64,000 bases of DNA from Psammoneis japonica (taxonomy: Eukaryota): NCBI GenBank assembly GCA_008632985.1, contig QPGO01000009.1:434001-498000 (forward strand), written 5' to 3'. Shown piece by piece: positions 1 through 64,000 of the stretch. The notes under the pieces were generated by a model. The model was given only the letters and a program-made list of their open reading frames with translations. It ran no database searches and had not been told where the DNA came from. Made by a program: the position numbers and the translations under genes. Position 1 is the first letter of the stretch. The number at the start of each line of letters is the position of its first letter.

Positions 1-132
1 ACCCCCATTGTCATTTGCTCCAACAGCAAGAATGGTTTCCAAGCGACTGAGAACACAGAAATGCCAAATTGACAATCTGCAGCTCGACCAATCGGTCTCT
101 GCCCGAGATGGCTCCAGGATGAAATGACAATG

Positions 133-599
133 CCGCATTCAAACAATCGAACCGATTCTGACCTTGTCCCATTGTTTGTCTTTTGATGGCAAGCTCCGAC
201 AGCAACAATGACTGCCATGTCCGAGAGCCACACGGAAATCCAAATCGGTCACAATCGGCTTGTCCAGGAACATCTCTGGCGAGAGAAGAACCCAATGGTC
301 CGAGGCAGAGTCGCATTCAAACAGAAAAGCACCACCAACACAGTCCACATGGTCATGTTTGTCATGTCTCCAATTGCAAGAATGAATCATCTCATCTCCG
401 TTCAACATGAGGGACTTGCCAAAGTCACAAGCAACCTTTCGTCCAACCAATTCTTGGCCAGTGCCTGTCCATGATTGCTTGTGACTGGGTGGAAGGAGTG
501 ACAGTGTCGACAGACAACAACCTTTGTTTGGAAACTTGGATGTCATCTGCCGACATCTCCATCATGCATCATTGGTCGTCTCTTTGTTGGTGTTTTTTT
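133..599. repeat. Dispersed direct repeat, copy A (~470 bp; paralog at 3824-4288)
   Basis: Direct alignment from ccgcattcaaacaat to ctttgttggtgttttttt. Differences are mostly CG<->TG/CA and TA<->CA/TG. Confidence 0.9.
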
Positions 600-1237
600 G
601 AGAGCTGCCAATTGCTCACCATGGTGTTGCTCAGCTCACCACGTGCTCACCACGTCTGTCGGCCATCAGGTTCTCGGATGTTCCTGACCCCTCCTCCCCA
701 CGGCCAGATGCAGTCTCAGTGCATTGTGCATTCAAACCTTTTCAGATTTGAATAAAAACATGAACCGCACCATGCATGTAAGACTCATCTTTGCTTGAGT
801 GCACATGCTCCAGTGTTCGCGAGCACCGTGAAACCAACAAAAAAGCACGCATCAAGACAAGTCGCTGTCAACACCAACAAAACAACATGAGTCAACCATG
901 ATGGTTTCAAAACATTCGTCTCCATCACCTTCCCCGATGCGTCGCCACTTTGTTCATTTGCCAATTCCTCCAGCACAACAGGTGATGTTGTTTGTGTGGC
1001 CGTCGCATGCCCACAACTGCCAAAATTAGAGCTTGTTTGTTGACATTTTGTTTCTCACGCTCCAGTGCCTGCCGCAGCTTCTGTCATGAATGAAAACGCT
1101 GTGGTTGCCTTTCCCATGACTGCCATGCCCTGTGCTGTTCCTGATGTGCCTGGTTCAAGAGATGATGAAGGTGCTTTGCCTCTCCTCAACCAGCCACCGA
1201 CAAAATTGTTTGCTGCAACTCAAGCTGTCTCTGGCAC

Positions 1238-1953
1238 GCTCCAGCACCTCCCACAGTTGCCACAATGAATCCAATGCTGTCAGCGCCATTCAGGCAACTG
1301 CCACACCCTGCACTGTTCCTGCCACACGTCTTGCTGCAGGCAATGACGTTTCTATGGCTGTCGTGTTCCCAAAATGTCAAAAGTGCGATCGCACTGTCTC
1401 ACGCTCTATTTTGCCACGCTCCAGCGCCTCTAACAGGTGCCACAGTGAGTGCAATGCAGTCAGCACCAATCAGACCCCATGCTGTTCCTGCTGTGCGTGT
1501 TGCCACAGGTGGCAACGTTTCTATGGCTGTCATGTTCCCACAATGTCAAAAGTGCGATGTCACTCTCTCACGCTCTGTTTTGCCACGCTCCAGTGCCTCT
1601 AACAGGCGCCACAGTGAGTGCAATGCAGTCAGCACCATTCAGACCCCACGCTGTTCCTGCCACACGTGTTGCCACAGGCAATGACGTTTCTATGGCCATC
1701 ATGTTCCCACAATGTCAAAAGCACAATGTCACTCTCTCACGCTCTATTTTGCCACGCTGCAGCGCCTCCCACAGTTGCCACAATGGATGCAATGCCGTCA
1801 GCACCATTCAGACAACTGCCACACCCTGCGCTGTTCCTGCCATGCTTGTTGCAACAGGTGATGACGTTTCATGGCTGTCGCATTCCCATGACATCAAAAG
1901 TGTGATCGCACTGTCTCTCACGCTCTATGTTGCCATGCTCCAGCGCCTCCCAC
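1238..1953. repeat. Tandem repeat, ~4 units of ~170-190 bp
   Basis: Recurrent blocks gctccagcgcctc, tgcaatgcagtcagcacca, gacgtttctatggc and tgtcaaaagtgcgat. Confidence 0.85.
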
Positions 1954-3823
1954 AGAGGATGAATCAACAGAAACGGGAACTGTGTGTCTTTGCACAGTGT
2001 GGGGCACTGCATCATCTGGCACTGAATGGTTGTGTCCAGTGGTTGGTGGCGGCGCTCCATTCTGTTCCCATGGAATGCCGAATGTGCCGAAACCTGCCTG
2101 AGTGGCGATCCATTCTGAGTCGGTGGTGGAATGGCTTGGTTGCGACAGCGGAACGAGTCTTGGCACCGACTCAGGATGCATCTCACATGCAACATGGTTG
2201 GATTTGCTTTTTGACACAAAAGAGGCAACAGCAGTGGTGGCAAATAATTTGTTGGAAAAATCGTCATCGGGCTCCGCATTTGGTCCAAGAAATGTACACT
2301 CAAGGCATGTGTCTTGCAGGTCGTCAGTGCAGTGCAATGAACGGTGGATCACAACTCCACTGATGTTTCTTGCATCATGCATCCGATGTTCCTGCTCCAC
2401 GGCACAAGACTCAACGCTTGTTTTTTCATTCGACAAGCACCAATCACAACTGTCGTTTGCACAGAGGAGTGGATTGGCTGTTGTTCCACGAAAAGTTTGC
2501 GACAAGCCATTGCACTTCTGCAAGCGCCACCTCTCCTGTTTTGCCGTCGGCTGTTTTCGCACTCGGTGGTGACATTTCGATTGAACACATGGAACGAAGA
2601 GTCACGATTCATGACTGGATTTCACTGCCAATGGCTGCTCAATCGTCAGTTCGATCTCATGAAGTGCAGAGTTGCTTGGATCGCATCTTGTCAGCAACTA
2701 GAAAAGGGAAACAATCATCAAGTCAAGAAACGATTTTTCTCGAAGACGTTGTCCACCTTCTTCAAGACAAGAAAGAGGGTGCTTTTCACACACTCATGGA
2801 CATGGATCTTGTGCCTGAGGACTGATTCGATGATTTATCCTTGAGTCAAGGTTTGTCACAAAAGTGCGGTTTCGGATCAATGAATGCTCTGCGTTTCAGC
2901 CCGGCGAAGTGTTCTCAATGTTTCCGCTCCACCATCGTCCGCCGAGGTCATGCTGTGCTCCATGTCATCAACAAACTTGTTAAAGTTGTCATTGTGCAGC
3001 AGACGAATCATGCAATTTCGCAAATCGTTTGCTTGGCGATCTTCCGTTTGTCGTCTTGCGCATTGCTTTGTGGGTGGGAGAGGTGTGGTTGAGTTTCAAA
3101 AGAGCTTGCTTGATTTGACAGCAAGTTGGTGCGAGCACACGCTCAACCCAATGCTGCAACGCATTGAGATTGTCTTTCTTCTTCCCAAAGGACATGCCAT
3201 GCCCGTGCTCTGCAATCCTCGACCACCATCATAAAGAAAAATGCAGCAAATGCCAAGAGCAATGCAATCGTACAGCACCTCTAAAGAACCACCTGACACT
3301 GTGATCCGCTCAACAAACAATGGATCATCCAACTTTTCGTGGAGTGCCTGAATTGCCGCGACGAGGAGTCGACAGTCTCAACTGGTGAACAAGGCATTTG
3401 AGGCAAATCTGCACCAGATGGCCCTCAAACCTCAAACACATCTTGGTGAGGCAGGAAGCTAGAACGGTTCGCAAGAAGACGTCACTGCCAATCACCATCT
3501 TGCGCAAGTGAGGAGTGTTGTCCGACTCGTCAGGACGAGCAGCTTTGGAGCAAACAGCCTGGATTGCACAAGTGCCATCGGCCAACACAACGTTCTTGGC
3601 AATCATTTTGGGAGCCTCTCCTTCTTCGTGCTTCTCTTTGTGATTCTCTTCTTTGGAGATCAAGAATGGGGTCAGACCTGGCTGTTCTGAATGAGTTTCA
3701 AAGGCATCCACAATGGTTTCCTCCGCACCCATGTGTTGCCCAATGTCCAGAGGCATGTGCACATGACGTTGCCAGAAGAAATGTCCTCGACAAAAACCAA
3801 CAACTTGGGCAAGATGGACAACA

Positions 3824-4288
3824 CCGCATTCAAACAATTGAACCGATTCTGACCTTGTCCCATTGTTCGTCTTTTGATGGCAAGCTCCGACAGCAACAAT
3901 GCCTGCCATGTCCGAGAGCCACACGGAAATCCAAATCGGTCACAATCGGCTTGTCCAGGAACATTGCCAGCAAGAAGAACCTGACGGTCCAAGGCAGAGT
4001 TGCATTCAAACAGAAAAGCACCACCAGCACAGTCTACACGGTCACGTTTATCGTGCCTCCAATTGCAAGAATGAATCGTCTCGTCTCCATTCAACGTGAG
4101 GGACTTGCCAAAGTCGCAAGCAACCTTTCGTCCAACCAATTCTTGGCCAGTGCCTGTCCATGATTGCTTGTGACTGGGTGGAAGGAGCGACAGTGTCGAC
4201 AGACAACAACCTCGTTTGGAAACTTGGATGTCATCTGCCGACATCTCCGTCATGCATCGTTGGTCGTCTCTTTGTTGGTGTTTTTTTT
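3824..4288. repeat. Dispersed direct repeat, copy B (paralog of 133-599)
   Basis: Same sequence as 133-599. Retains TA at agtcTAcacg (4031) and gtttATcg (4047) where copy A has CA/TG. Confidence 0.9.
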
Positions 4289-4337
4289 TTCCTTTTTTTG
4301 CGCGACTGTTAATGACTAAACACATGTATAAACCCAA

Positions 4338-4560
4338 TTTTTTTCTCACATTTGGAAAAAAATGAGTTTCGGCGAAGAAAAATGATTTTTTTCGAACGGT
4401 GGGCCGACAATTTTTCATTTTGAACAAATTTTTCTCACATTTGGAAAAAAAGTGAGGTTCGGCGGAGAAAAATGATTTTTTTCGAACGGCAGGCCGACAA
4501 TTTTTCATTTTGAGCAAATTTTTCTCACATTTGGAAAAAAAGTGAGGTTCGGCGGAGAAT
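4338..4560. repeat. Tandem repeat, ~2.5 units of ~90 bp; possibly a transposon subterminal array
   Basis: tttttctcacatttggaaaaaa(a/g)tgag(t/g)ttcggcg occurs three times, and aatgatttttttcgaacgg twice. Confidence 0.8.
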
Positions 4561-4703
4561 TTTTCTCTTTTGTTGCGTTGTTGTTGTTGTTGTTGTTGCT
4601 GCTGTCACAAGTGATGTCAACAACAACAACACAAAACAGGATGATGAGTTGCCACTGTGCATCACAGTTAAGCCACACACTTGTGTTCTTGTTCTTTACA
4701 ACG

Positions 4704-5563
4704 ATGCCACAGGTTGAGAGTTTGGCAACGATCTCCAAGGCGGAGTGGATGGATCTTTCCAAGAGGAGTGCAACAATCACTCTACCCCGTCCGGACACGT
4801 TTCTTTTACGACAATCAAGGTGACTTGCACGTCTTTAGCAGACACGTGGAAGAACAAGAAGGAAACGGTGATGCCACAACTTGACACGTCAAGAATGATT
4901 TGTGGAAGTGGAGCAGCAATCAAGGCTGGATTCCACAAAAAAACAGTGGTGCTCCCAACCCACAGTTGGCGTCTGCCTGCTCCATTTTACGAAACAAGCC
5001 CACCCTGTTTGGTGGTTGGGATCCACAAAAACCAGGACTGGTGGAATGATTCCAGACGATGTCGTGCAATTGGAGGATGGAAGCAATCAATGGAACACCC
5101 TGGAAAACATCAAACCACCCGACGGACCCAACAGTCGTCATGTCGCGGTTGCTTTGCATGATGACTGCGTTTTGTTGCACACTCATCGCTGTGCCAATCA
5201 CATTCTTGTCATGACTGCTGCACATAAAAGGGCAGTGGCGTGTCCATTGAGAAGCAAGCCACAACGGGTGATGCCCCCTCACCACGTGGTTTGCATGCCG
5301 CCGAATTGATGTCGAAAAACAAGCTGCTGGTGATGTGTGGAGCCGCACAAGATGGGACCATGTCCAATGAGGTGCTTGTGTTAGATGCATCCACACAGGA
5401 ATGGACACGTGTCGAAATGACCAATGATGCTCCGTGTCCTCGTGCTTCGCCTTGTCTGTGTGCCGTGCAAGATGGTGTTGCCGTGCTGTTTGGTGGTGCC
5501 GTGCCAAAAAAGAATGGTGTTCGAGCAAATCTCGCTTTTTGGCTCTTGAGGATCCCTTTTTGA
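4704..5563 (+). pseudogene. Kelch-repeat protein pseudogene
   Basis: Kelch motifs split across frames: PSGHVSF, TGDAPSPRGLHAA, VLVLDASTQEWTRV, APCPRASPCLC...LFGG. Frameshifts, stops and no Tyr. Confidence 0.7.
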
Positions 5564-5659
5564 CTCCAGCGGGTTGTTGCCGGAACCAAAGCAGGCATCC
5601 AATGAAGACGCACAGTGGCGGACAAGGCATCCAATGAACACATCAAGGCCCAGTCGTTA

Positions 5660-7135
5660 AAGTCCAATGAAGTCTCCATCAGTTAAAAAGAAAGGGACGT
5701 GCTGCTCAAGCATCTGTTTCATCTGTTGTTCCATGTGAGAATGGCGATTGTGGATGCAACGACCATTGCAATGAAACCCATCCCTGACACGACGCATTTC
5801 AAGAACGTTCTCCACGGTGCAATCTTGGGATCTAGACGATTGTGAATCTGCGGCGGAAAGACCGAGATGGGACATCCCAACATGCTTCCCATGAGACTCA
5901 CCACCATGTCCAGTGAGTTTATGGTGCATGCCGCGACAATTGCAAGCAAACACACACACACACAGCCGATTGAAAGTTGCGTGTTGACAGCAATGTCAGC
6001 ACACGCCTCTTGATCCAATTGTCAGAAGACAGGCTGGGATGCCGGTGTTTTGCTCTGCGACAGTCATGGAATGACAAGCAGTTTGAAGAGCGGGGAAGTT
6101 TTGGAGTGGAATGGTGCAAATGACCACAAGGCAGTGTGCCAGTTGCACAGAGGTTGCCAAGCAGCCGGTTGGAAGACTGACTGTCAGGACAGTTCGAACT
6201 GAGTCTCCAAAACCCGTCCAGTGCACCATGCCGAAGAAGGCTTCAAAGCCAATGATGCAAAGAACAACCCTCTCACAAACATCAGGAAACTTGGCACGCA
6301 CTTCCTCACCGTGGACAGCTTCTTGTGAAGGAACCAGCAGCGGCAATGGAGCCTTCAAACAGCAAAACCTGCACACAAGACACAAACAAGCATGCAAGCA
6401 TCATCGAAAAATGCAAGATTGAATTTCCGCGAAATGTCCTGGCCAACATGCTGAGTCCTGCACTTTGTCTTACACTTGTTCCGATGAATGAATGCCATTG
6501 GTCCCGAGCAACAAGGACTTAGACTGGTCGCGCTCTTGCAAATGTCTTCATGCCAGACTGGCTCTCCTCCCGCGGTTTGGCGTGCAGCACGACCCAAGCA
6601 AATCAGCAATCCACACAGTGTCAACGCACTGGCAAGCAAGTTGGCAGGTGTCAGCTTTCAAACATCATGAATCCACGACAGGGGCATTTAAATCAGCACC
6701 ATGTCAATCAACCACCATCGTGCGCTCCAGTCCAACCCAATGAGCAGGAGAAAGGACGAGTGCAAGTTTTGCGGGACAAAAATCAAATGCGCCAAACACA
6801 CTCCCGATTGCATCAAGGCAATTCCCAGCTTGACCAAGCTCTCGCCGGTTGGTCCCAGAGCACGATGTGTCAATTCAGGACAGGTCAGCATGACAACCTT
6901 GGCACAAGATGATGGCACCGACCCACAGTCGGCATTTTTGTTTTTGGGTTGCAGCGGCTCTTCCTCGTGTTTGAGAATGGGCTTGACGGAATGCTCCTTC
7001 TTGTTTTCGAGAGCCCAACTCTTGAACAAGCAATCCGAGGAAAACAAAAACACGACAGCAGTCAAGGCCAAGATAGGAAGCGCAGTGGATAGCTAGAGCA
7101 ACGGCGTGCGGTAGATACAAAATGGCAGCCGGATT
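5660..7135 (-). pseudogene. Amino-acid transporter (Aa_trans / SLC36-38-like) pseudogene
   Basis: Family-typical segments AILYLPHA, LT(C)PELT(H)RALG..GESLV, GVCLA(H)LIFVPQNL, FGDSVRTVLT and VVSLMGS.LGCP. Frameshifts and internal TGA stops. Confidence 0.75.
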
Positions 7136-7392
7136 GTGATGGGTCGGGTCGGTCGGAGCAGTCGGAGTCGTCACGCGAACATATATTCATTTATGTTTAC
7201 ATGAAGCTTTTTTTAAAAAATGCTCAAAGCCAACGCTTCAACACGTGACGTCAGCAACATTCTGGTACTGTACATAGTCGCCGTGGTCGTAGAAAACATA
7301 CTGGAAGTAACGTCCAAACATCAGCTCAGAAATCTTGGCGATATCGATACATACACTGTATCTTTTTTCACCCAATTTTTCTTGACACCACG

Positions 7393-8204
7393 ATGGTCCG
7401 CTTGAACCTTATGCTTCTTGCCTTCATGGCTACTGCCGCTCATGGCTTTGTCGTGACTCCAAACCAGGTGAGATGGTGTAGAATTCTGTTGTAAAGCAAT
7501 GCACCAATCGGGTCGTAGTAGCATATGCACATCTTTCATCTTTCTCAAAGAACAACGTTCATCTGTGGTTCTTATCGGTATAGTCCTTCTCTCGCTATTG
7601 CTTGGCCACTGTCGACTCGAAGAAGAACGCTGATGACGCACCCGAAGCAAAGCCTTCCCTTGCGGTGGGCACCATTCTCGAGTTTGAAGAAAAAGGCCGT
7701 TGTCATGTCGGACGGATCGACGAGGTAGAGCACAAATCCAACGGCAACAACCGCTATGAGGTTCATGACAACGACGGGAAGCATTACAGCATTGCCGAAA
7801 AGGAGGTTCATTTCAGTGTCCCGTCTCCTACCAACGAGCCGGCCGCAATCAAGCTCTTTACCGAAATGACCAAGGCACAAACCGCGTCCGAACAAACCTT
7901 GAGAGATTCGTTGGATGTGTCTCCGGAATTGTTAGAGTTGGTTTGGGAAACTGCTCTAGAAGAACAAGCAGATGTCACGCCCCGTTCCTTGATTCAAGAG
8001 CTACATTCGCACGCGGCCTCGCACGTGGAAGCCTACATGGCGTGGCGTCTCCTCCAAACGGATTTGGCCCACGTCTTTTTCAAGGACCTCAAGCACCACG
8101 GCAAGATTGTATCCTTCAAGACAAAGGCTCAGAAAGCCGTCGAGGCTGCCAAACAGAGTTTTTGTGCTACGCACAAGGACGAGGAAGAGTTTTGTTTTGT
8201 TTAG
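7393..8204 (+). CDS. Plastid-targeted protein resembling the N-terminal region of cyanobacterial/plastid RNase II (no RNB catalytic domain); exons 7393-7467, 7584-8204
   Basis: Signal peptide MVRLNLMLLAFMATAAHG-FVV and an in-frame GT..AG intron at 7468-7583. Motifs GTILEFEE, LLELVWE, VTPRSL and EAYMAWRLL...VFFK are recognised from memory of the family. Confidence 0.65.
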
Positions 8205-8906
8205 AAACAAGAAATGAGAACACCGGTATGTGAGGACTGCTTTTGTATCCCCACATTTCATGACGAGAAAAGAGATTGAGCTAGATACTATACATACTGT
8301 AAATAAGAAAGAAAAAGATCGTGATGCATCGCAATTTCAGGTGAAGCTAGAGGTAGAATAAATTCTAGCAACAAAGTCTACTCTGAGAAGTCAAACTAAA
8401 CTTCGCTTTTGTTCTCAACAAAGGTACACTAAACTCTCGACTGAGCCATGCTCACTCTACGTAGAGAAAGGAGACAAACAGGGCTGCTTTGCCTGTTGTC
8501 CAATTCGATGGACATTGCCACCTTTGCTCACCCGTCTCCTTTTTTCCCTACTTCCTATCGCAGTCGCCGCGAAATGTTGTGAAGATAGGGCCCTACCGGT
8601 AGAATAGGGCCCTCTAGATACGGTAGAAGCGAAGGGCAGATACCGCCTGGTCGTCGTCAGTGGTCATTTCGTTATGAAATTATTATATTAGGGTATCGAT
8701 AATCTTGAATGTAATACTTTATTAGCATCTGTAGCTTGTCATCACATTCGTCTGTCCATCGATTCAAAAGACCGCCCCGATCACGAACGTGATGTCGCGT
8801 TCACGTAGAAATCACGTACAACTAATACCAACAGTCGCCGACAACATGCAACATACTTGTACCGTTCTCGCTCTCACAGCAACAACAACACAAAGCAACA
8901 ACAACC

Positions 8907-10839
8907 ATGTCGTCGTCTTTAGATATATCAGATTCTCCAACTCCATCCATTACTCTGGCACGGTCCATGCCTCAGGGTGTAGATGAGTTAGAGGACATGA
9001 TCCTTTTGATTTGTTCAAGTCTCAAATCGAAACAGGACAGACCGAAGCCAAGGTGGATGCTATGAAGCGCCTCGCGGTCGTGGCGTACAGCATGGGAACC
9101 AACGATGCTCTCCAAAAGTTGATACCCTATCTCGCCACGATTGCAATGAAACAACAACAACCCCACGAAGATGAGCTCTTGTTGGAACTGGCGAGTGAGT
9201 TGAAAAAGCTCGTGCCGTCGCTACTCAAGGGCACTCAGGCACTTCCGCTCTTGCCCATTTTGGAGCGATTGGCGTCTGTCGAAGAAACCGTAGTCAGAGA
9301 TGTGGCGGTGGATACAATTAATCACGTGGCTCCTGAAATTAGCGACTCGGCCGTATTGGTGGGCATGGCGAAGCGTCTTGTTGGTGCTGATTGGTTTACA
9401 GCCAAGGTGAGTGCGGCGGGTATGCTGCCCAAGCTGTACGAATGTACGCGAAGCGCCGAGCTTGTGGATATGATTCGAGAGTTGAGTGTCGATGATGCAC
9501 CCATGGTTCGACGGGGTGCCGCTACGCATTTGGGAACCTTCATGTCGTACTTGCCTCGTGATCAGTTGCAAGAGCTCTTGCCGGCGCTGCAACAATTGAC
9601 CACGGACGAACAGGACTCTGTACGGCTCTTGGCTGTAACATCCCTGAGTAAAGTGGGCAAGGCCTTTGAGAAGGATGCAGAGCTGTCGGTGCAAGTCGTT
9701 GTACCCATTATCAAGGCGGGAAGTACTGATCAGAGCTGGTATGTGTTGTACAGTATAGTTGTGTATTGTGATTGCTTGGATTGATCTGCTCAACTCACAT
9801 TTACTTTTTCTATATCCTCCTCAGGAGAGTCCGCAACAATTTGGCCAAGTGCTTTTCGGACGTGGCAGTCAATTTGTATTTGACGGAAGAATTCCAAAAG
9901 GAAAAGACTCTCGTCATGGCGTGCTTTGTCGCCCTGTTGCAAGACCCGGAACCCGAAGTGCGAGGTGCGGCCGTGGGACACTTGGCACGCATGGTGCATT
10001 GGGGCGGACCGACGCTATTTGCTAGCCATATCCAGCCCCTCTTGGCCGCCTTAGCGGATGATCCCATCATGTATGTCCGTTCCAAGTGTGCTCTGGCACT
10101 CATGGATGCCAGTGAAGGTGGCACGTTGGAAGATTCCACCATTTTGCAAGCATTTGCACACTTGCTCGAGAACTTTTTGCAGGATGAATACGCCGAAGTC
10201 CAGTTGCACGTGTTGGACAATTTACACCGCCTCTCTCATTTATTGGAAAAAATGCAGGGCGTCGTGTCGGCTATTCTCAGCATGACCAAGGCACCCAATT
10301 GGCGCGTCCGACAGGGGGTCGCCAAGCTCTTGCCGCACCTGTGTGAAGCACGGGGTGTTGACTTTTTCGCATCCGTCTTGTTGGAACCAGCCTGGGAGGC
10401 GTTGCTGCTGGATTCGGTTGCTCATGTCCGCATGGCTTGTGTCCACGGTGTGCCACAGTTGTGCCGTGTGGCTGGACCCGAATGGATCCAATCCACCGTG
10501 TTGCCACTCCACGTGAAACTCTATCAAGCCAACTCGTCTTCTTATTTGATCCGAATGACTATTTTGCACGCTCACGTGGAAACCGCAAAGGCATGCAACT
10601 CACAACAGCCTGACTTGTGGTTCAAAGTTGTTTCTATAATTATTCAAGAAGGACTTGTCGACAAGGTTCCCAATGTCCGCATGGCGGCTGCCCGGGGGTT
10701 GACTGAAATCGTGTCGGGCAGTCCGACCAATGCGGATTACATTCAATCCAAAGTGTTGCCAGCGTTGGAATCTAGTATCAAGGATGAGACTGACGAGGAT
10801 TGTCGTCATTTTCAACAATTGGCGATTGAAGCCATCTGA
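8907..10839 (+). CDS. PP2AA: Protein phosphatase 2A scaffold subunit A (HEAT repeats); intron 9739-9824; apparent 1-nt frameshift near 9000
   Basis: EDELLLELA, LASVEETVVRD, DWFTAKVSA, DDAPMVRR, DEQDSVRLL, SWRVR (joined across the intron), NWRVR and DKVPNVR are PP2A-A motifs. Confidence 0.92.
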
Positions 10840-11208
10840 ATGGTTGTAGTGTTGATGATGTAGCGTTTAAGAAATCAGATTGGGTATTTTACTGTTAGCT
10901 TTTAAAAGGTTTGGTTGTGTTTGGAAAGCTTCTGCCTCTGGTTTTGTAAGGTTTGACATTTTCACACCAACACACTAGCACTCTACTCTCGTCCGAGAGA
11001 GTTGCGCTTCTGGCAATCATCGCCCGTAAATGAGTCGTTAAATAGGCGCTTCATGATGTCATATTTTCCATCGTGTTCAGACTCAACAGAAACTGTCTTA
11101 GCCTGTCGTAGTGTCCATCTACTGGCTAGAAAGCAGCTGCTCGCTAACAGCTAGAGACTCTATACCGTAGACGGGAGGAAATAACCTCACTGCAGCAAAC
11201 TCTGTCTG

Positions 11209-11370
11209 GCTGTCACAGAGCACGGGTCAAGCTTGGTGAGCCTCATTCGTGATGTGAGCTCAGAGCTCAAGAAGCCTGATTTGCCAGTTGTTGTTGGCGG
11301 ATTGGGGGTGGACAGCATTGATTCAGGTGGCAAGAGCAAGCCAAAAGCCTTCATTTCCGAAGCATTCAAC
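11209..11370 (+). pseudogene. Fragment resembling the C-terminal part of a sialate O-acetylesterase (SASA/DUF303) domain
   Basis: E(H)GSSLVSLIRDVSSELKKPDLPVVVGGLG resembles EYxxNLxxLIxDxRxxLxxPxLPxVxGELG. Confidence 0.4.
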
Positions 11371-11399
11371 AAACTGCCGCAGTCATGGACAAGTTTAAA

Positions 11400-48800: not shown

Positions 48801-48950
48801 CGATCTTGAAGTAGAAGGAGCTGGGGACAAAGACAAATCGTGTCGCAGGCTCCATCCCTGAACTCACAGCGCTGCGAACTTCCTTCCACATGGAAATCTG
48901 TTTGCACGGGACCACTAGTCTCCTTCCCAATGGAACAGCTCGGTAAAGAT
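45900..48950. other. TpA-depleted, CpG-retaining domain 6 with a long degenerate coiled-coil ORF (46754-47854, +)
   Basis: TA is nearly absent while CG is abundant. The 366-aa ORF has a single Tyr and no recognisable family. Confidence 0.7.
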
Positions 48951-57600: not shown

Positions 57601-58866
57601 CTACTTGAGTTGTTTCAAACGTAGGCAGGCTTCAGCAATGTCCTGTTTAGATCGACAAGCTGCGAAACGCAAGTAGTGCCGACCCTCGTCTTTTGACTTT
57701 CCATAGAAATTGTCGCCAGGGACGCATGCAACCCCCACAGTCTTGATCATGTGCATGGCTGCCTCCATAGGCTCCATTGCACTCAACTTGGGGACGTTTG
57801 TGTATTTCGCAAACAGATAGTATGCACCTTCTGGCGGAGTAACCACAAATCCAGCCGCGACTAGCGCCGCGGCCAGCACGTCGAGTCTGTCCTTGTATTT
57901 CGTCTTTAGCTCCCGACAAAAGTATGATTCCGGTAGAGACAGATAGGTCAAGGCAGCATATTGCATTGGATGTGGTGCCATCAAGACCATTTGGTCGTGC
58001 ACGCCACGATAGGCGTCCGCCAAGTGCTCTGGATGAATGCACCAACCTAGTCTCCATCCAGTGGCCGATGCTGACTTTCCAATCGAATTGCAAATCAAAG
58101 TCTGGTCTGCAACCTTTGGGAATTCCTTTGGAATAATGTAGTGAGGAGTTTCACCATACAACATGTGCTCATATATTTCGTCTGTCAAAATGTAGACATT
58201 GTATTTGTGGCAAAGGTCAGTAATGAATTTGAGCTCGTTGTAGGTGAACACCTTTCCAGTAGGATTGTGGGGTGAGTTGAGCACCAGAATACGAGCGTGT
58301 GAGATTGCTTCTTCCATTTCCGCCTCGTCATACGTCCAGGTGCTACCACTAGGGCGAAGAGTAACAAAGATTGGGTTCAAGTGAAAAATACCGCACTGGC
58401 TCGGATACAATTCGTGGAAAGGTTCTAGACAAACGACTCCATCCCCTGGCATACCAAGCGTTCTCAGCGCTGATGCAAAAGCTTCTGTTGCTCCTAGAGT
58501 CACAGTTACGGTGTTTGGGTCAACATTGTAGTCATAGAGCCGTCGATAGTGATCGGATATCGCCTGACGCAGGTCCGCTCTACCCATGGGCGCGCAGTAT
58601 TGATTGATCTCGTCACTTTCCGCCGGAGAAGTTGCTTTTCCGACCAGGGCTGTGATGGATTCTTGAAGATTGGTTTCAGACACTTCCAAGTCACATTCGG
58701 GCTTGCCTGCGAGGACACCATACGCCAACGCCAAACGCACTTTCCATGACGGAGCTTCGTTTGGATACCCTTGACTTAGGTTCACGGCTTTGTGTTTCTG
58801 TGCCAACACTGTCATTTTGCGAATGACAGATTCCTTTACCCTTCCGAGATTATGTGATGGTGCCAT
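57601..58866 (-). CDS. PLP-dependent class I/II aminotransferase (kynurenine/methionine aminotransferase-like)
   Basis: AVNLSQGYP, LNSPHNPTGKVF, TDEIYEH, SIGKSASATGWRLGW, PEGAYYLF and LRFA. Confidence 0.92.
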   Translation of the reverse strand: MAPSHNLGRVKESVIRKMTVLAQKHKAVNLSQGYPNEAPSWKVRLALAYGVLAGKPECDLEVSETNLQESITALVGKATSPAESDEINQYCAPMGRADLRQAISDHYRRLYDYNVDPNTVTVTLGATEAFASALRTLGMPGDGVVCLEPFHELYPSQCGIFHLNPIFVTLRPSGSTWTYDEAEMEEAISHARILVLNSPHNPTGKVFTYNELKFITDLCHKYNVYILTDEIYEHMLYGETPHYIIPKEFPKVADQTLICNSIGKSASATGWRLGWCIHPEHLADAYRGVHDQMVLMAPHPMQYAALTYLSLPESYFCRELKTKYKDRLDVLAAALVAAGFVVTPPEGAYYLFAKYTNVPKLSAMEPMEAAMHMIKTVGVACVPGDNFYGKSKDEGRHYLRFAACRSKQDIAEACLRLKQLK

Positions 58867-59107
58867 GTTTGAATCGAAACGCTGTGCTACTGATACAAGT
58901 CGACAATTACTTGTTGCTAAGCCTTGTTGATATGCTACCGGTACAGAAAAAAGTCGGACGGGGTTCTGCGCAATGTCTCCGGTAGAAGCAGGGCAGCAGG
59001 GGGAAACACAGACGGACAACAAAAGTCCATTCGCTATTCGCTTCGACAACGACTTTTTGCCACTGTGTGTACTTGTTGCATTTGATGCACAAGCCATTGT
59101 AGTCATA

Positions 59108-60076
59108 ATGAGGACTTTGTATAGCTTGCGAGAAGTGTTGGACGAAAGGAACTCAGACGAGGTCGAACACATCTTCATCGATCAGGGTCTTCAACAAAGA
59201 AATGCTATCGAGGAATTGTGCCGAGTCCTCCACTCCTTTCGTGAAGTGACGGATCTTGACTTGTATGATTTATACATTGGCCCAGAGGAAACAGAAGAAT
59301 TGTCACGAGCCCTTCCATCGCTCCCAAAGCTGAGCGTGCTTGTTCTGGGTAACACCAGTTTTCGTTTGGGGAATGACGGTGCCAAGAGTTTGTCAACAGT
59401 CATCCCTAAACTTTCTCGGCTGGAGGAACTGCACCTGACTTATAACAACATTGGCCCTGAAGGTGTAGAGGCTGTGTGCAACAAAATCGGTGAAACAAGA
59501 ATCACGCTTTTTGGGCTTCTCGGAAATCCATTTGGACGTCAAGTTGCAGAAAGCATTGGACAACTTATCATGAATAATCGCACACTGACACATTTGTTAC
59601 TTTTTGAGTGTGGCATTGGAGATGAGGAAGTCAAGGTGTTGGCCAGAAGCCTGCTGCACAACTCATCAATTGTTTCTGTCGATCTATCGGATAATAACAT
59701 TGGGGACGATGGAGCTAGAGCCCTTGGAGAAACGCTTGTGAGAAACGACACAATCGAAGAATTGGATGTGACGCGTAACCCATTTAGAGACATGGGGATG
59801 GCGGCCCTAGTAGATGCTGCAAAGCAAAATACGAAGGTCAGTCTTCGCCGCTTATGTGACCGCATGGATGATGAGCTAAGGGCTGAAATTGAAAGGGACC
59901 GCATGATGTTGCAGGGCATTTCACGGTTGTTGGGTGACAATTCTGTTCCAGATGCCATTTGGGCCAAGGTTTTGGAACGGGTTGGCCACAACTCCGTCCT
60001 TTGTTACCGTGCGCACAAGGCCAAACCGGATCTTTACAAGAAACGGCCCGTTGCTTCCGAACTAGAGCAGAAGTAG
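59108..60076 (+). CDS. Leucine-rich-repeat (RNI-like) protein
   Basis: LEELHLTYNNIGPEG, LTHLLLFECGIGDEE, VDLSDNNIGDDGARALGETL and LDVTRNPF repeats. Confidence 0.85.
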   Translation: MRTLYSLREVLDERNSDEVEHIFIDQGLQQRNAIEELCRVLHSFREVTDLDLYDLYIGPEETEELSRALPSLPKLSVLVLGNTSFRLGNDGAKSLSTVIPKLSRLEELHLTYNNIGPEGVEAVCNKIGETRITLFGLLGNPFGRQVAESIGQLIMNNRTLTHLLLFECGIGDEEVKVLARSLLHNSSIVSVDLSDNNIGDDGARALGETLVRNDTIEELDVTRNPFRDMGMAALVDAAKQNTKVSLRRLCDRMDDELRAEIERDRMMLQGISRLLGDNSVPDAIWAKVLERVGHNSVLCYRAHKAKPDLYKKRPVASELEQK

Positions 60077-60559
60077 TTTGGGATGTCAACCAGTGTGAGA
60101 CACGTCCATCGAAGTCCCTTGGTGTTGAGTGTTTGTAAATTTCTAGAAAGACACGTGTGTCTATTTTATTGTCTACCAAGTTCATTCTTTGTATAGAGTA
60201 GTGTCGGTGTCTTCGCTGGAATTGTTGCTACGTCCGAACTGGGTTCGGGCTGCTGCTGCTGCTGTCGTCGCTGCCCATGTTATGGTCGGAGTCGGTATCG
60301 TCGAGCGTCGGCACGTCTGGTGGGATTAGCGGTGGCCGAGGTTCAGGGCTCCAAATGTCCAGGAGCATGTCGTGTCTAAGGATTCGGATGGAGTTGACAG
60401 TGGTCGACGGTGGCTGGAGACGACACCCTACCTGTGTCGTTAGTGGAATGGATCCTGGGAGTCGTTGAAAGGGGTTCTGCGTCCCTTCGGGGTCTTTTGG
60501 GATAGTTTTATCCGAATTTGCACCAATCGCGGAGCAACAGCTCGCCCATTCCACACTGC

Positions 60560-63500
60560 AGGCGAGCATCGCCGACATGGTGCAGCGTGTTTCCATGAGA
60601 CAGGCCTTTCGAGGCACACCTTCCCCGGGCTTGGAGGCCAGGAAAAGAAAGCAGAGGATCACCAATGCAGGTGAACGGGGTGTTGTGAACGAAAACAGAA
60701 AAGACGACAGTGATTCCGCAGGCCAAACGATCATCGCAGTCCACAGACGTGCGCTCAGAACAAGCAGCACGCAATTGAAGATTTCCATGCAGTGCTCCTC
60801 TCTAGAGCTGGCTGGAGTCTCTCCACTAAAAAAGGTTTCAAAGCGCGCACCACAAAAAAATGAAATGCACCAACATGTCTGATGTTGCCATTGAAGGTGA
60901 CGTTGCCTCAAGAGCACCACAAAATGCATCCTGAGAGAGAAACATCATTCCAAGAATGTAAAAGGGGGGACATGATGTGGAGACACAAGAAAATGTCAAC
61001 CTCTTGCCACAAATTTTGCTCCCTGCAAGCAAAGGATCATTGTGTTGTGACACATCACACCAGCACAGTGAAAACCCCCGACTCAGCCTTCCCATCAAAG
61101 GTCAGATCCACTTTGCAAGTTCTTGCTTTTTTTGCAAACAAACACTTGCTGTTGGCACCAACAGCCAGCTGCAGTGACATGGATTCAAGGCTGGGGAGAT
61201 GCTTTTGATTTGCCCCAAGCTCTGGACTCAACTGACAACACCTGTGCTGCCAACTTTAACCACACAGAAAAAATGAAACAGCTTGGACAAAAAAAGAAAG
61301 AAGGGAACACACAAGCACTGGAATCAAGCTCAAGATGCATCAGTGAAGAAGGAAGAAGAAGAGTTCAATCACTTCATTTGGTCAACCAAATCAAAACTGA
61401 AGCAACCACACCATTTCCCCCCACAGACAGCCAGCCAGCCACCAGCACAGTTTGACATCATGACACCACTCAAAGATGGCTGCTGTTGTGCGTGATGCTG
61501 TGGCAGAGCAAGCCAGAGTTGATGCCATGCTTCTGCAAAAATGTTTGTTGGCTCCAACAGACAAGACTCAAGATCTGGAGCTCCCACAAGGTCAGGTGGC
61601 AGAGCTGAAGAAAAAGATTGGCCAGCTTGAGTCCAGCATCAATGCCAAGGAGAGCATTGCAAGGAAATGACCCAGTTTTTTGTTCACATGCCAGATTTCT
61701 GCCATGTGCTGTTGACAGCTTGCTGCTGGATGTTGCCCTCAATGTTGCATCAATGGAAGCCAAGTTTCAAGCTGATGCAGTCATCAGCCATGCTGCAGTG
61801 CATGGAAAGTGTGACATGGCCATCACAGCTAATTGCTGTGCCTTTTCCAAGTTGGTGAGAGAGCCCAGACATGCCACTGGTGTTCAATTTTAAGCATCAA
61901 AAAAACAAGCATGGGTGTGTGGATCTTTCCAGCCACCCAGCATTGCATCATTTTCTGTCATGGAAGAAGTTGTGTGGTTGTCTTCCATTTGAATTGGTGT
62001 CCTTGACTGTCTTGGGAGACAGCCTCTGCCTTTTGGACCACGTGTTCATCACTCCTGTGGTTCACCACACCATCTGACAATGGATGCTGCACCAAATGCT
62101 GGTTGCCTTCACAGTTGCACTGGGCAAACATGTTCTCAGCCATGACACTGGCCATCAGCTTGGTTTCCTGGCCATCAGGGAACTCAACCTTCTTGTGGAC
62201 CCCCGTGCCCAGGATGGGATTGGTGCTGGCCAGTCCAGCTGGTGTGCCATCCAGGTTGAGCATGCACCGTGTGACCTTGCTGGTTCTTTGGCACATGTCC
62301 CCATGTGGCAGCAACACCTCAGCATTCAAGAGGATGTCATGGGCTGCGTCAGGCAGTGTGTCCTCATCTGGGGCATTGGACGAACCTTGTCCTGAATCAT
62401 CCTTGTGTGGGTCAAAGGTGGGAGCAATCACATCAGGGTTGCCAATGTTGCTGATGGTCATCCCAGGGCCTGGCTTGGCCTCCATGATGGTGTCAAACTT
62501 GTCACGCATGAGTGCATCTTGTGGCGCAGTTCCTCAGGTGTGAGTGGTCTGCAGGAGGATCAGCAGATGACCCATCCATTCTCCTTGAGTGTCTTTGCAG
62601 TCATCACTGGTCTTGCGTCCCTGCTTGGGCCTGGGCACCTCCCTGAGACTTCTTTGTCACAGGGAATGGGACAGCCATGTCCCTGAACATGACCCAGTCA
62701 TGCCATCTGACCTCCCATGTGTGTGAAACATTGGCCTTCTGTCCTGACACCACTGTCTCCAGCACTTCACCATTGAGCTTGCAAATGCCATGAAGGGCAT
62801 CAGACCAGATCAGAGCTCAAATTCAAGGCAGTCATCCCACAGACGTTTGGGTGCCTGAGTCTTGACCATCTTGTGCCCAACACCTTGCTTGAGCTTGTGC
62901 ATGGTGCCTTTGGCAAAGTTGGACCAAGGGGTGCATGGCTTGGTCTGTCAAATGTGGCAGTCCACCACTTGCACCATCTGCTGTCATGGTGTGAGGCACC
63001 CCATCTTGGGTGAAGAGCAGGGGCAGTGCCTCGTGAGCAAGACCTTTGGATCTCATGTGATGGGCATGTGCCCAGCAATTGGCCATGCCAAAAACTGGGG
63101 CACATGTGTCACCGCATCTTGACTTGACAGAAGAGAACAGGGTGTGGGAGCACATCTCCTTTGCAGCGTGGCTGCAATGGAGTTGGCGGTCATTCATGCG
63201 GAAACAATGTAACAGCATTGGGTGCAACATGGTTTGGGCACCGCGCTGAGTGGTGGCCTTGACTGCATTCTCTGTGTCCTTGACACTGATGGACCAATTC
63301 TTGGCCAGCTTTTCAGCATCTGTCTTTAAACCCCATTTTGTCATCTTGAGCAAAGAGAGGCCAACAGAGGCAAGGAGCATGCATTTGTCACATGCATTGG
63401 AAATGTCTTGTGCTCTGAAATGGTTGGTTTCATGGTGGGAAAGCAGCTCTTGTAAATCCATTGAGTTTTAGTGGGATCACCAATTGGTTGTGTGAATCCG

Positions 63501-64000
63501 CGTCCTTGAGTGTCACTGCATGTGATGTGCTGTCAGGCTTTGTCAGCAGGAACTTGGGCTTTAAAGTTGAGCCCTGCCTATTCAGCCACAGTTGCGTGGG
63601 ACACAAAAGGCAGTGTTCAAGATGTGGGATGTGGACAGCTTGGTGGACTGCCAAGATGTGGTGTTCACCCAAGGTGGGGTCCGTGCACATCATGGCACCA
63701 ATGATGGTGTGCAAGCTTTTGCCAGTGCCCAAGTCTGGGTCACAACCAACAATGTCTGCTGGGTGATCATGATCAAGCAGAATTGAAGCACATTTTCCTG
63801 ATGCACTTGTGTCAGCATGACCATCTGTCTCAGTCCAAGATCCCCCTCGTGCTCAGCTTCTGTCATGGCAGTCTGAGTCAGGTGCAAAGAGGTTTGAAGT
63901 GGGCTGAGATGCATGACCTTGGGAGGAGGTCACACCTTCCTCCAGCCAGGCTCACAGCCACCAATTTTGTCACACCTGTTCTTGGCCATGGTGTCCTTGA
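60560..64000. other. TpA-depleted (and, beyond ~60900, CpG-depleted) hypermutated domain 7
   Basis: TA is nearly absent to the end of the window. Confidence 0.85.
61958..63800 (-). mobile_element. Ty1/Copia (CoDi-like) LTR retrotransposon relic: protease-to-integrase and post-integrase region
   Basis: DPTLGEHHILAVHQAVHIPHLEHCLLCPTQL...IPLKLNG; LAKNWSI...ATTQRG; TLFSSVKSRCGDTCA; DGVPHTMTADGA; NPILGTGV..VEFPDG...AENMFAQC. Confidence 0.8.

Follow-up and report, generated by a model that had tools for sequence, protein, structure and literature searches.

This locus raises the question of what has emptied about half of it of the dinucleotide TpA (TA) while sparing the DNA in between. We analysed a 64,000-nt stretch of Psammoneis japonica DNA (GCA_008632985.1, contig QPGO01000009.1, positions 434,001–498,000, forward strand; hereafter the window), in which a first-pass annotation had described seven nearly TA-free blocks, covering about half of the sequence, interleaved with DNA of ordinary TA content. 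Using its block coordinates for all counts (33,216 bp in the seven blocks and 30,784 bp in the six stretches between them), we find 157 TA in the blocks against 1377 expected at the interleaved-DNA rate (binomial P underflows to 0), confirming that description. The observed/expected ratio (O/E) of TA is 0.08 in the pooled blocks (0.02–0.22 by block) and 0.59 in the interleaved stretches (1276 TA), a clear difference between blocks and interleaved DNA, and an independently run segmentation on TA density returned the same seven blocks. The blocks and two of the interleaved stretches, none of them assigned a strand, are as follows:

1–7070: block 1 ('young'), partly repeated in the genome; 41 TA, TA O/E 0.09, CpG O/E 0.67
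11190–18670: block 2 ('old'); 15 TA, TA O/E 0.03, CpG O/E 0.14
24510–33390: block 3; 49 TA, TA O/E 0.09, CpG O/E 0.34
37060–39000: block 4; 2 TA, TA O/E 0.02, CpG O/E 0.10
39900–41250: block 5, the least depleted; 20 TA, TA O/E 0.22, CpG O/E 0.62
45900–48950: block 6; 18 TA, TA O/E 0.10, CpG O/E 0.71
60560–64000: block 7, continuing past the window end; 12 TA, TA O/E 0.06, CpG O/E 0.19
7071–11189: TA-normal gene stretch, an example of untouched interleaved DNA; TA O/E 0.62, CpG 0.97
41251–45899: TA-normal stretch with few ORFs; TA O/E 0.65

Block edges are step-like, with TA density shifting within roughly 10–50 bp at most boundaries. The gene stretch at 7071–11189 carries an RNase II-like gene and a HEAT-repeat gene, as indicated by domain matches, and X2 contigs with GT..AG joints at 7465/7582 and 9737/9824 map within it. 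The ORF-poor stretch at 41251–45899 has no Pfam match but normal TA, so coding function alone does not account for normal TA.

The composition of the blocks identifies the type of change. CA and TG are equally raised (O/E 1.71 and 1.67) and remain symmetric in each kilobase (|CA−TG|/(CA+TG) ≤ 0.2). CpG is also depleted, unevenly (O/E 0.10–0.71 by block), and the joint loss of TA and CG (6.64 percentage points) equals the gain of CA and TG (6.55 points), indicating that the change consists of transitions only; the pyrimidine–purine dinucleotide total stays constant (24.05% vs 23.96%), which leaves no room for transversion products. TA loss thus reflects a genuine process of A:T→G:C transitions at TpA that is confined to domains and affects the two strands equally.

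A segmental duplication of 3 kb that crosses two block boundaries shows that this loss occurred in place:

47933–50907, + strand: copy A, 88.8% identical to 40225–43192 over 3055 columns, with the TA boundary inside it at 48950
40225–43192, + strand: copy B, with the TA-poor/TA-normal boundary at the homologous place, 41250

The TA-poor parts are block 5 from 40225 (copy B) and block 6 from 47933 (copy A). Identity between the copies is 0.72–0.86 in the TA-poor part and mostly 0.93–0.99 in the TA-normal part, where three 200-column windows fall to 0.74–0.82. Substitutions number 100 over 973 aligned sites in the former, 87 of them transitions, and 89 over 1916 sites in the latter, 47 of them transitions. 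As the first-pass annotation had noted for paralogues, the copies differ by TA versus CA/TG: the TA-poor part has 15 TA present in a single copy, 17 sites at which one copy reads CA while the other reads TG, and only 4 TA kept in both (three of these four being CTAG), compared with 13, 0 and 73, respectively, in the TA-normal part. The inferred TA density when the segment was duplicated is about 4.7%, which is normal. About three-quarters of TA was therefore lost independently in each copy after the duplication, while the adjoining part was spared, and this independent loss in one part only identifies TA depletion as mutational. The signature previously ascribed to a TpA-specific A:T→G:C mutator (transitions only, domain-restricted, strand-symmetric and here also post-duplication) is borne out.

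TA loss is distinct from the decay of CpG. Per-copy survival in the TA-poor part of the duplication is 0.25 for TA and 0.68 for CpG, with other substitutions at 0.016 per site per copy. The corresponding hazards are 1.39 for TA loss and 0.39 for CpG decay. Compared with background substitution per site, loss per TA step ran about 85 times as fast; compared with the decay of CpG in that DNA, the factor is 3.5 to 12. The latter is a second, slower process, presumably 5-methylcytosine (5mC) deamination, which shares the domains (CpG O/E as low as 0.10) and likewise yields TG and CA, but whose chemistry cannot remove TpA. Blocks 1 and 6 are TA-depleted yet retain CpG O/E of 0.67–0.71, and the CpG-depleted core begins 0–400 bp inside the TA-poor domain edge. 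The order of events is recorded in a direct repeat within block 1:

126–599, + strand: left copy, 92.8% identical to 3817–4287, already TA-poor
3817–4287, + strand: right copy of this 470-bp pair, partner of 126–599, already TA-poor

The 31 differences comprise 17 CG versus TG/CA, 3 CA versus TG, 2 of TA type and others, placing TA loss before this duplication and CpG decay after it. The separation of the two processes drawn in the first-pass annotation is thus supported.

The same annotation had read the blocks as TE-rich, composed of Copia/LINE relics and dead gene copies. The dead genes stand: the recognisable contents are fragments of host type, both in block 1:

5228–5560, + strand: dead Kelch-repeat gene fragment (Pfam Kelch_KLHDC2_KLHL20_DRC7, E 8.5e-16; ORF of 111 aa, 0 Tyr), also matching Kelch proteins in the PDB
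5999–6400, − strand: dead amino-acid-transporter (Aa_trans) gene fragment (Pfam Aa_trans, E 6e-6, exactly at cut-off; ORF of 134 aa, 0 Tyr, 14 Cys, 5 His)

The transposon part does not: Pfam scans of 518 block ORFs found no reverse transcriptase, integrase, transposase or viral domain, with block 2 giving no match above family cut-off and no recognisable protein domain, and block 3 only weak matches below cut-off. Repeats and extra read depth are confined to block 1, which has tandem repeats at 1313–1949 and 4340–4559 and a word depth of 109–324, compared with about 55–60 in unique parts, in X1, a deep public DNA run whose platform is not on record and which is possibly the assembly's polishing data. 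Read depth puts block 2 at roughly one copy. X1 contigs and the window differ at 408 places, 356 of them transitions; the 40 listed differences all lie in block 1 and point to other copies in the genome, the contig having TA against TG/CA in the window at 9, the reverse at 1, with 3 CA-versus-TG doubles. As is typical of old pseudogenes, the blocks bear frameshifts, stops, indels and transversions. Tyr codons are nearly gone, as anticipated: each of nine listed block ORFs (111–384 aa) has 0–2 Tyr, compared with 4–26 in six listed intact-gene ORFs. The suggestion that conserved Tyr residues now read as His or Cys holds for two columns of three in the Aa_trans fragment, the one dead gene alignable to 60 homologues (117 in a representative search, the best 56% identical): the conserved Tyr columns in its well-aligned part read Cys (TGT), His (CAC) and, contrary to the suggestion, Glu (GAA), and one Leu column reads TCA.

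The survival of TA follows its flanking bases, a rule that is new in this analysis. Supposing that the blocks once had interleaved-DNA composition, survival is 0.016 for RTAY (6 vs 380; R, purine; Y, pyrimidine), 0.092 for RTAR/YTAY (61 vs 656) and 0.305 for YTAR (74 vs 240), so that RTAY is erased most and YTAR least, an order stable across three baselines. A two-strand multiplicative model with hazards set by the base 3′ of A (T 1.95, C 1.89, G 0.90 and A 0.28) gives a chi-square of 28.4 (about 12 degrees of freedom) compared with 194.5 for no context; its misfit lies in an excess of CTAG and TTAC and a deficit of TTAG. The rule thus fits independent attack on each strand at 5′-T-A-Y-3′, and fits A as the target in T-A-Y or T as the target in R-T-A exactly equally. 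RTAR has become mainly RCAR (68–98% in three block subsets), and directly polarised events lend weak support to the predicted product direction, with 10 for and 5 against.

The first-pass annotation knew of no described mechanism, but one has been proposed. A 2026 bioRxiv preprint (10.64898/2026.01.13.699255) reports TpA→TpG/CpA hypermutation measured in mutation-accumulation lines of Bigelowiella natans: 230 of 231 mutations in two viral regions were A→G or T→C, all at TpA, the rate rose about 1000-fold in those two regions alone and in only some lines, and 124 TpA-poor, CpA+TpG-rich clusters occur genome-wide; the authors favour adenine deamination and propose an ADAT2-like deaminase. The signature in the window is the same: solely TpA→TpG/CpA, on both strands, in discrete regions, with a long-term trace of TpA-poor, CpA+TpG-rich clusters mostly lacking annotation. 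In the literature, we found the signature reported for this one unrelated alga and not for diatoms. The systems also differ. B. natans is a chlorarachniophyte (rhizarian), whereas the DNA here is from a diatom or close relative (stramenopile); its NCLDV region has a Rho of 0.45, compared with near saturation here (TA O/E 0.02–0.22); its reported targets are viral, whereas here dead host-type genes are affected and no viral or TE domain was found; and it provides a de novo rate where the window provides sequence traces. The nested CpG-decay core is seen in the window, as are the T-A-Y rule and two-strand model, the words 'flanking' and 'trinucleotide' being absent from the preprint text exclusive of Table S2.

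Our preferred reading, to which we give slightly better than even credence, is that silent domains between expressed genes are hypermutated from TpA to CpA/TpG, most likely by a TadA/ADAT-type deaminase. Silent, decaying domains lie between expressed genes, and a mutational process acting on DNA, hitting each strand independently and ending over tens of bases where the domain ends, has converted nearly every TpA in them to CpA or TpG. Its preferred site is 5′-T-A-Y-3′ if the changed base is read as A, equivalent to R-T-A if it is read as T. The sequence demonstrates this signature together with its mutational origin, strand symmetry, restriction to domains and flank rule; the enzyme and its targeting are inferred. 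A TadA/ADAT-type enzyme would turn adenine into hypoxanthine in DNA exposed as single strands and, if directed to silenced chromatin, could serve in genome defence or decay. The leading and most likely candidate is an adenine deaminase that acts on DNA. TadA, ADAT2–ADAT3 and TadA-derived base editors convert A to I, which is read as G, next to a 5′ T (U), and attack on either strand when it is exposed as a single strand agrees with the two-strand model. The recognition site of TadA is U(−1) A(0) C(+1) G(+2), and an Asn that permits single-stranded DNA substrates is present in some natural TadA enzymes; the T-A-Y preference includes this U-A-C core, which supports the candidate. However, the natural substrates of these enzymes are tRNA loops, T-A-T is struck as strongly as T-A-C in the window, and eukaryotic ADAT2/3 substrates mostly have a purine at position 35, a mismatch with T-A-Y. 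We know of no established natural chromatin-directed DNA adenine deaminase.

Fungal RIP (RID/DIM-2 dependent) is likewise domain-wide, dinucleotide-specific and transition-only, acts on both strands, kills genes, leaves sharp edges and affects both copies of a duplicated segment. Its direction is the opposite, as the annotation had pointed out: RIP converts CpA to TpA and enriches TA, whereas TA is erased here. In addition, the TA-normal half of the 3-kb duplication escaped, which means that being duplicated is not in itself the trigger, and block 2 is present in roughly one copy.

The closest competitor, although we consider it unlikely, places the lesion on T: a TET/JBP-type dioxygenase would oxidise the T of R-T-A in silenced DNA to 5-hydroxymethyl- or 5-formyl-uracil (5hmU, 5fU), and mispairing with G or error-prone repair would yield C. 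The flank data fit R-T-A and T-A-Y exactly equally, 5fU promotes A:T→G:C mutation, and dinoflagellate 5hmU occurs preferentially at TpA and TpC. According to PMC11572971, a dinoflagellate TET/JBP homologue that prefers single-stranded DNA makes 5hmU, which is repeat-enriched and linked to TE silencing. On the other hand, because 5hmU forms a good pair with A, a high mispairing rate would be needed for conversion to be nearly complete; TpC is not depleted like TpA (TC falls from 7.30% to 6.22%, TA from 4.15% to 0.47%); and the B. natans authors prefer adenine deamination. To our knowledge, 5hmU has not been reported from diatoms.

Less probable still is a by-product of repair, in which silent chromatin, lacking transcription-coupled or other repair, is the only place where TpA-specific damage or the marks of error-prone patch repair (Pol-eta-like, WA motif) build up. 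The TA-poor domains do lie between transcribed units, ending about 0.3–0.5 kb from the ends of spliced X2 contigs, and Pol eta makes A→G errors at WA, with TA its best site. Its spectra, however, contain many transversions and strike AA as well, whereas the blocks have no transversion products and an AA share that is nearly unchanged (7.97% vs 7.77%); Pol-eta-like repair, one of the originally listed candidates, thus fits poorly. TA loss came earlier and ran faster than CpG decay and so needs no mismatches from 5mC deamination, and the ORF-poor stretch at 41251–45899 retains normal TA. The confined, line-specific rate increase reported for B. natans also argues against passive accumulation.

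We regard it as very improbable that the true sequence has TA and that long-read base-callers misread a modified base at TpA. Such bases do produce systematic errors in long reads, a mixture of CA and TG is what reads from the two strands would show, and X1, the sole DNA run found, derives from the same sample as the likely source. Nevertheless, five X1 contigs (551–2189 nt; word depth about 55–60) match TA-free block 2 at 98.2–99.4%, each with 4–15 differing letters, where a TA-normal true sequence should give about 4 differences per 100 places. This agreement makes an assembly artefact unlikely, and such 31-mer depth is probably out of reach for noisy long reads. The lesions of old-pseudogene type and the different products at one site in paralogous copies also oppose miscalling, as does the context-dependent survival of 2–60% of TA, which an all-or-none miscall would not give.

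Editing before integration, whereby ADAR-like or other editing of retroelement RNA/cDNA produces TA-poor copies whose insertion ends form the block edges, is comparably improbable. Sharp edges and the genomic repetition of block 1 would suit it, and ADARs favour U 5′ of the edited A (discussion of 10.64898/2026.01.13.699255). Animal APOBEC3 and ADAR similarly leave deaminase-made, context-specific transition clusters in selfish DNA, but they act on one strand of an RNA/cDNA intermediate before integration, whereas CA equals TG in every kilobase here, indicating that both strands were hit. ADARs also prefer a 3′ G, in contrast to the 3′ pyrimidine preferred here. Furthermore, TA was lost in place after the segmental duplication, in both copies and with the same internal end point, and the affected DNA includes dead host-type genes, with reverse transcriptase and integrase domains not found in the 518 block ORFs.

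Least credible of all is that the blocks are foreign or special DNA that was TA-free from the outset, for although some viruses and genomes avoid TA and the hypermutated B. natans DNA is viral, no viral domain was found in the 518 block ORFs, the gain of CA+TG matches the loss of TA+CG, the 3-kb segment had normal TA density when duplicated, Tyr is missing from the dead Kelch and transporter genes at positions where homologues carry it, and in 9 of the 40 listed differences another genomic copy still reads TA.

A 500-bp profile of the window shows long runs with 0–6 TA per 500 bp beside runs with 13–40. Segmentation by TA density, done blind, recovers the seven near-TA-free blocks that the first-pass annotation had delineated from the sequence, and the density switches within roughly 10–50 bp at 7070, 11190, 18670, 37060 and 39000.

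TA-poor blocks, with the observed/expected ratio (O/E) of TA
1–7070, block 1, 0.09
11190–18670, block 2, 0.03
24510–33390, block 3, 0.09
37060–39000, block 4, 0.02
39900–41250, block 5, 0.22
45900–48950, block 6, 0.10
60560–64000, block 7, 0.06

Together, these blocks (33,216 bp) hold 157 TA, an O/E of 0.08, against 1377 expected at the rate of the interleaved DNA. The latter, six stretches totalling 30,784 bp, holds 1276 TA (O/E 0.59), the ordinary content that had been ascribed to it. CA and TG rise together in the blocks (O/E 1.71 and 1.67, respectively), and G+C is little altered (0.499 in the blocks versus 0.469 in the interleaved DNA).

The survival of TA, expressed as its occurrence in the blocks relative to the interleaved DNA, varies with the flanking bases (R, purine; Y, pyrimidine), and the order of contexts is unchanged with three baselines (all interleaved DNA, ORF-poor interleaved DNA and long-ORF genes).

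Survival of TA steps by flanking context
RTAY: 6 in blocks, 380 in interleaved DNA, survival 0.016
RTAR/YTAY: 61 in blocks, 656 in interleaved DNA, survival 0.092
YTAR: 74 in blocks, 240 in interleaved DNA, survival 0.305
TTAA: 28 in blocks, 45 in interleaved DNA, survival 0.62

A two-strand model, which lets independent attacks on the two strands depend on N in 5′-T-A-N-3′, yields hazards of 1.95, 1.89, 0.90 and 0.28 for T, C, G and A 3′ of the A, and has a chi-square of 28.4, as opposed to 194.5 without context, with some misfit left. The loss of RTAR/YTAY shows up mainly as RCAR/YTGY (68%, 78% and 98% in three block subsets, with CpG products split evenly), and the changed base is thus either A in T-A-Y or T in R-T-A, which are equivalent descriptions; among directly polarised events, 10 follow the predicted product direction and 5 go against it, a weak agreement. 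This flank rule is new, being absent from the first-pass annotation and from the available text of the B. natans preprint discussed below.

The rule bears on which base would be attacked. An enzyme may deaminate adenine in transiently single-stranded DNA, and the available text of one source gives the TadA recognition sequence as U(−1)A(0)C(+1)G(+2) and notes that the Asn through which evolved TadA can take single-stranded DNA also occurs in certain natural TadA enzymes (PMC10586758). If A is the target, the window has a T 5′ of it and prefers a pyrimidine 3′ of it; the same data fit a T target in R-T-A. Oxidation of that T is the main rival to adenine deamination, and sequence data alone accommodate it equally. 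A TET/JBP homologue produces 5hmU in dinoflagellates, where this base is concentrated in repeats and linked to transposable element (TE) silencing, according to the portion of the source available (PMC11572971).

A 3-kb segmental duplication within the window records the process in two copies. Each consists of a TA-poor left kilobase followed by two TA-normal kilobases, with the switch at the same homologous point.

Copies of the duplication
47933–50907, copy A, switch at 48950
40225–43192, copy B, switch at 41250

Differences between the two copies (TA-poor part; TA-normal part)
Substitutions/aligned sites: 100/973; 89/1916
Transitions: 87; 47
TA shared by the copies: 4; 73
TA versus TG or CA: 15; 13
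CA versus TG: 17; 0
CG shared by the copies: 25; 106
CG versus TG or CA: 19; 12

Paralogues had been said to differ by TA versus CA/TG, and the TA-poor part bears this out with 15 such sites and 17 CA-versus-TG sites, the latter being the expected trace of two independent hits on one ancestral TA or CG. A simple two-copy model attributes about four fifths of the CA-versus-TG sites to ancestral TA, and places about 46 TA sites in the TA-poor part when it was duplicated, a normal density of 4.7%. Under this model, survival per copy is 0.25 for TA (hazard 1.39) and 0.68 for CpG (hazard 0.39), and all other substitutions amount to 0.016 per site per copy. These estimates imply a mutation rate of TA steps about 85 times that of background and 3.5 times that of CpG, figures that are rough because the homogeneous model predicts about 9 CA-versus-TG sites and 17 are observed. 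Of the four TA sites that both copies of the TA-poor part retain, three are CTAG. As regards duplication as a trigger, one part was mutated in both copies and the other, 93–99% identical over most of its length, was spared.

CpG decays in the same DNA. The CpG O/E is uneven across the blocks (0.10–0.71) and 0.97 outside them, and the CpG loss with TpG/CpA gain is the same as in decay by 5mC deamination. In blocks 1 and 6, TA has been lost while the CpG O/E is still 0.67–0.71. Block 1 also contains an older repeat pair of roughly 470 bp (126–599 and 3817–4287) that was already TA-poor when duplicated; it has since changed mainly by CpG decay, with CG set against TG/CA in 17 of the 31 differences. 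The CpG-poor core starts 0–400 bp inside the TA-poor edge. These observations show that the TpA process is faster than CpG decay and separable from it. At three edges (11190–11600, 18000–18670 and 60560–60900) CpGs persist up to about 400 bp inside the TA-poor DNA; either the margin is the younger part of the domain, or the TA-mutated domain extends beyond a narrower methylated core.

Strand symmetry and mass balance dispose of several other histories. CA equals TG in every kilobase (|asymmetry| ≤0.2 in 32 of 32 sub-windows of 881–1000 bp), which excludes a history of editing on a single RNA or cDNA strand, and ADAR/APOBEC-type editing of retroelement intermediates before integration is rejected for want of this asymmetry. 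In percentage points, the blocks lose 3.67 of TA and 2.97 of CG (6.64 in total) and gain 3.32 of CA and 3.23 of TG (6.55 in total). The four pyrimidine–purine steps sum to 24.05% outside the blocks and 23.96% inside, so there is no leak into transversion products, and AA is unchanged (7.97% versus 7.77%). Pol eta, which had been among the suggested agents, is rejected on both counts, there being neither transversion products nor AA depletion. Because the CA and TG gain matches the TA and CG loss, a native composition is rejected as well: the TA-poor state is a conversion of TA, together with CG, to CA/TG. Fungal RIP, which changes C to T at CpA and enriches TpA, runs the opposite way, as had been recognised, and is rejected since the blocks are depleted in TA and enriched in CA/TG to an O/E of about 1.7; DNMT4, a RID-related family, occurs in diatoms, according to the available part of PMC9998398. 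The data thus show a TpA→CpA/TpG process that acts in place, is strand-symmetric and domain-restricted, and prefers T-A-Y (or R-T-A).

The TA-free sequence recurs in sequencing reads. Contigs from three public runs of one sample were compared with positions 1–20000. In one run (X1), word depth is about 55–60 in unique DNA, and five contigs of 551–2189 nt cover block 2, each 4–15 letters off the window sequence; among genic contigs, two have 0 differences and one has 3. A TA-normal true sequence would differ at about 4 places per 100, and the TA-free sequence is therefore present in X1 too. An assembly or base-calling artefact is rejected, because the X1 contigs reproduce TA-free block 2. The depth of X1 argues for accurate short reads, with the platform not on record and the run possibly being the assembly's polishing data. 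Block 2 is near single-copy by X1 read depth; block 1 has a depth of 109–324, which implies that it is repeated in the genome. Transitions account for 356 of the 408 places at which X1 differs. Forty listed differences, all in block 1, comprise 9 with TA in the contig and TG/CA in the window, 1 with the reverse, 3 CA-versus-TG doubles (6 rows), 17 of CG type and 7 others. In a second run (X2), block 2 is without contigs and cover at 668–2668 is weak (90–95% alike), missing cover not being counted as evidence. The X2 contigs skip 116 bases (7465–7582) and 86 bases (9737–9824) with GT..AG ends, indicating an intron in the RNase II-like gene and another in the HEAT-repeat gene; the run carries the label ‘DNA?’ yet behaves like a transcriptome.

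The intact genes between the blocks include PPR, aminotransferase, LRR, HEAT and RNase II-like genes. For the aminotransferase gene (57601–59181), the named best hits are all diatoms (56–61% identity; alignment identities 55–64%), which places the source organism among the diatoms or their close relatives. To characterize the blocks, we scanned 518 of their ORFs against Pfam: the 248 of at least 70 aa from all blocks, 145 of 40–69 aa from blocks 2, 4 and 7, and further small ORFs from block 3 (95) and block 1 (30 of 61), with 71 small ORFs outside this set (31 from block 1, 40 from blocks 5 and 6). Only Kelch families and Aa_trans match at or above the family cut-off.

Gene fragments in block 1
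5228–5560, Kelch fragment, Pfam E 8.5e-16
5999–6400, amino-acid-transporter (Aa_trans) fragment, Pfam E 6e-6

Sub-cut-off matches to OB_NTP_bind, HJURP_C, FOXO_KIX_bdg, TSP_3, Oxidored-like and Vps23_core were treated as chance. No reverse transcriptase (RT), integrase, transposase or viral family is found among the 518 ORFs, where old relics may be beyond recognition, and blocks 2–7 have no LTR-like pairs. The Copia/LINE relics of the first-pass annotation are thus unconfirmed, and its dead gene copies are confirmed in block 1, by the two fragments, and in none of the other blocks. Apart from the duplicates evident in the DNA, a tblastn search of all window ORFs against the window linked no block to an intact gene by protein-level paralogy, and no Rfam families or tRNAs were found. 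Block 1 carries tandem arrays at 1313–1949 (169-bp units, 3.7 copies) and 4340–4559 (90-bp units, 2.5 copies), the 90-bp array encoding a repeated peptide in the ORF at 3675–4604 (−). In block 6, 46700–47851 (+) is a 384-aa open frame with 1 Tyr, 16 His and 18 Cys, without a Pfam family or a homologue among proteins of near length; by a rough estimate rather than a computation it is longer than chance even without TAA/TAG stops, and it may represent a lineage-specific gene whose inactivation is recent.

Owing to the loss of TAA and TAG, the blocks contain 248 of the window's 417 ORFs of at least 70 aa, an inflation of spurious ORFs that can mislead gene prediction. Translations of the block ORFs contain almost no Tyr. 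The claim that conserved Tyr residues read as His or Cys holds in part, at very few sites: in the well-aligned part of the transporter fragment (117 homologues found, 60 aligned), conserved Tyr columns read TGT (Cys), CAC (His) and, against the claim, GAA (Glu), and one conserved Leu column reads TCA. This fragment has no PDB match, and alignments of the Kelch fragment to PDB chains hold too few conserved Tyr to be useful.

The first-pass annotation knew of no described mechanism, but TpA hypermutation has already been reported in B. natans. A TpA-specific, region-targeted A:T→G:C mutator was described once before, in this chlorarachniophyte, in a 2026 preprint that in its available text identifies no enzyme (10.64898/2026.01.13.699255). 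According to that text, two regions, one an integrated giant virus and the other a virophage, received 231 of the 302 nuclear mutations in mutation-accumulation lines, and 230 of the 231 were A→G or T→C, all at TpA; the rate was about 6e-7, roughly 1000 times baseline, with hypermutation in some lines only. The same text reports 124 TpA-poor, CpA+TpG-rich clusters genome-wide, mostly unannotated, with RT and DDE domains enriched in TpA-poor CDS, and proposes an ADAT2-like DNA adenine deaminase; it mentions no diatoms, flanking bases or trinucleotides. Our literature searches surfaced this preprint and no diatom report of TpA-specific hypermutation. As in B. natans, changes in the window are almost only TpA→TpG/CpA transitions (87 of the 100 substitutions in the TA-poor paralogue part are transitions), confined to discrete regions beside normally evolving DNA. 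In contrast to B. natans, targets of foreign origin are not borne out (viral or TE matches in 0 of 518 ORFs), and where that study reports a de novo rate rise, the window affords the indirect, roughly 85-fold estimate per TA step over other sites. The kind of system is one already described; the window gives the first indication of it in a diatom-type genome, where the signature is saturated and follows a new sequence rule.

The restriction to transitions, the strict motif, the step edges and the precedent of bursts in B. natans suggest an enzymatic origin, and the enzyme would act on the TpA of silent domains. Silent chromatin, rather than duplication or viral origin, would set its aim, given that the TA-normal part of the same duplication is spared and that host-type genes and near-single-copy DNA are affected. 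It is possible, if somewhat short of probable, that diatoms and chlorarachniophytes, perhaps the whole stramenopile–alveolate–rhizarian assemblage, share a chromatin-directed natural DNA adenine deaminase that reads 5′-T-A-Y-3′ where the DNA of silenced domains is transiently single-stranded, converts every TpA to TpG/CpA and outpaces 5mC decay, on targets that need not be viral or recognisable transposons. If so, it would be the mirror-image counterpart of fungal RIP and the natural analogue of the adenine base editors developed in the laboratory, filling a gap in known eukaryotic genome defences, explaining the unusual composition, the long spurious ORFs and the lack of Tyr codons met in algal genome annotation, and interesting base-editing research. 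The saturated signature suggests that such a system is common to major marine algae; it shows that about half of a gene-dense region can be consumed in this way and that host-type gene copies are destroyed too. The flank rule and the rate order, TA loss before CpG loss, yield concrete biochemical predictions for finding the enzyme.

A search of metagenome contigs with the diatom aminotransferase alignment gave 80 loci, 77 at 30–38% identity (bacterial-type) and three at 44–53%; none has a TA-poor, CA+TG-rich 1-kb window, which is not informative on other diatoms. The only clearly eukaryote-like relative among the 80, on a contig of 21,323 bases (L001; 53% identity, G+C 0.40), lies in DNA of ordinary TA content (O/E 0.85) with no TA-poor window. 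In our window, 41251–45899 and 39001–39899 have few ORFs, no Pfam match and a G+C of 0.39–0.45, and are TA-normal though they adjoin TA-poor blocks; the former contains a 134-bp tandem and palindromic repeat at 45564–45810.
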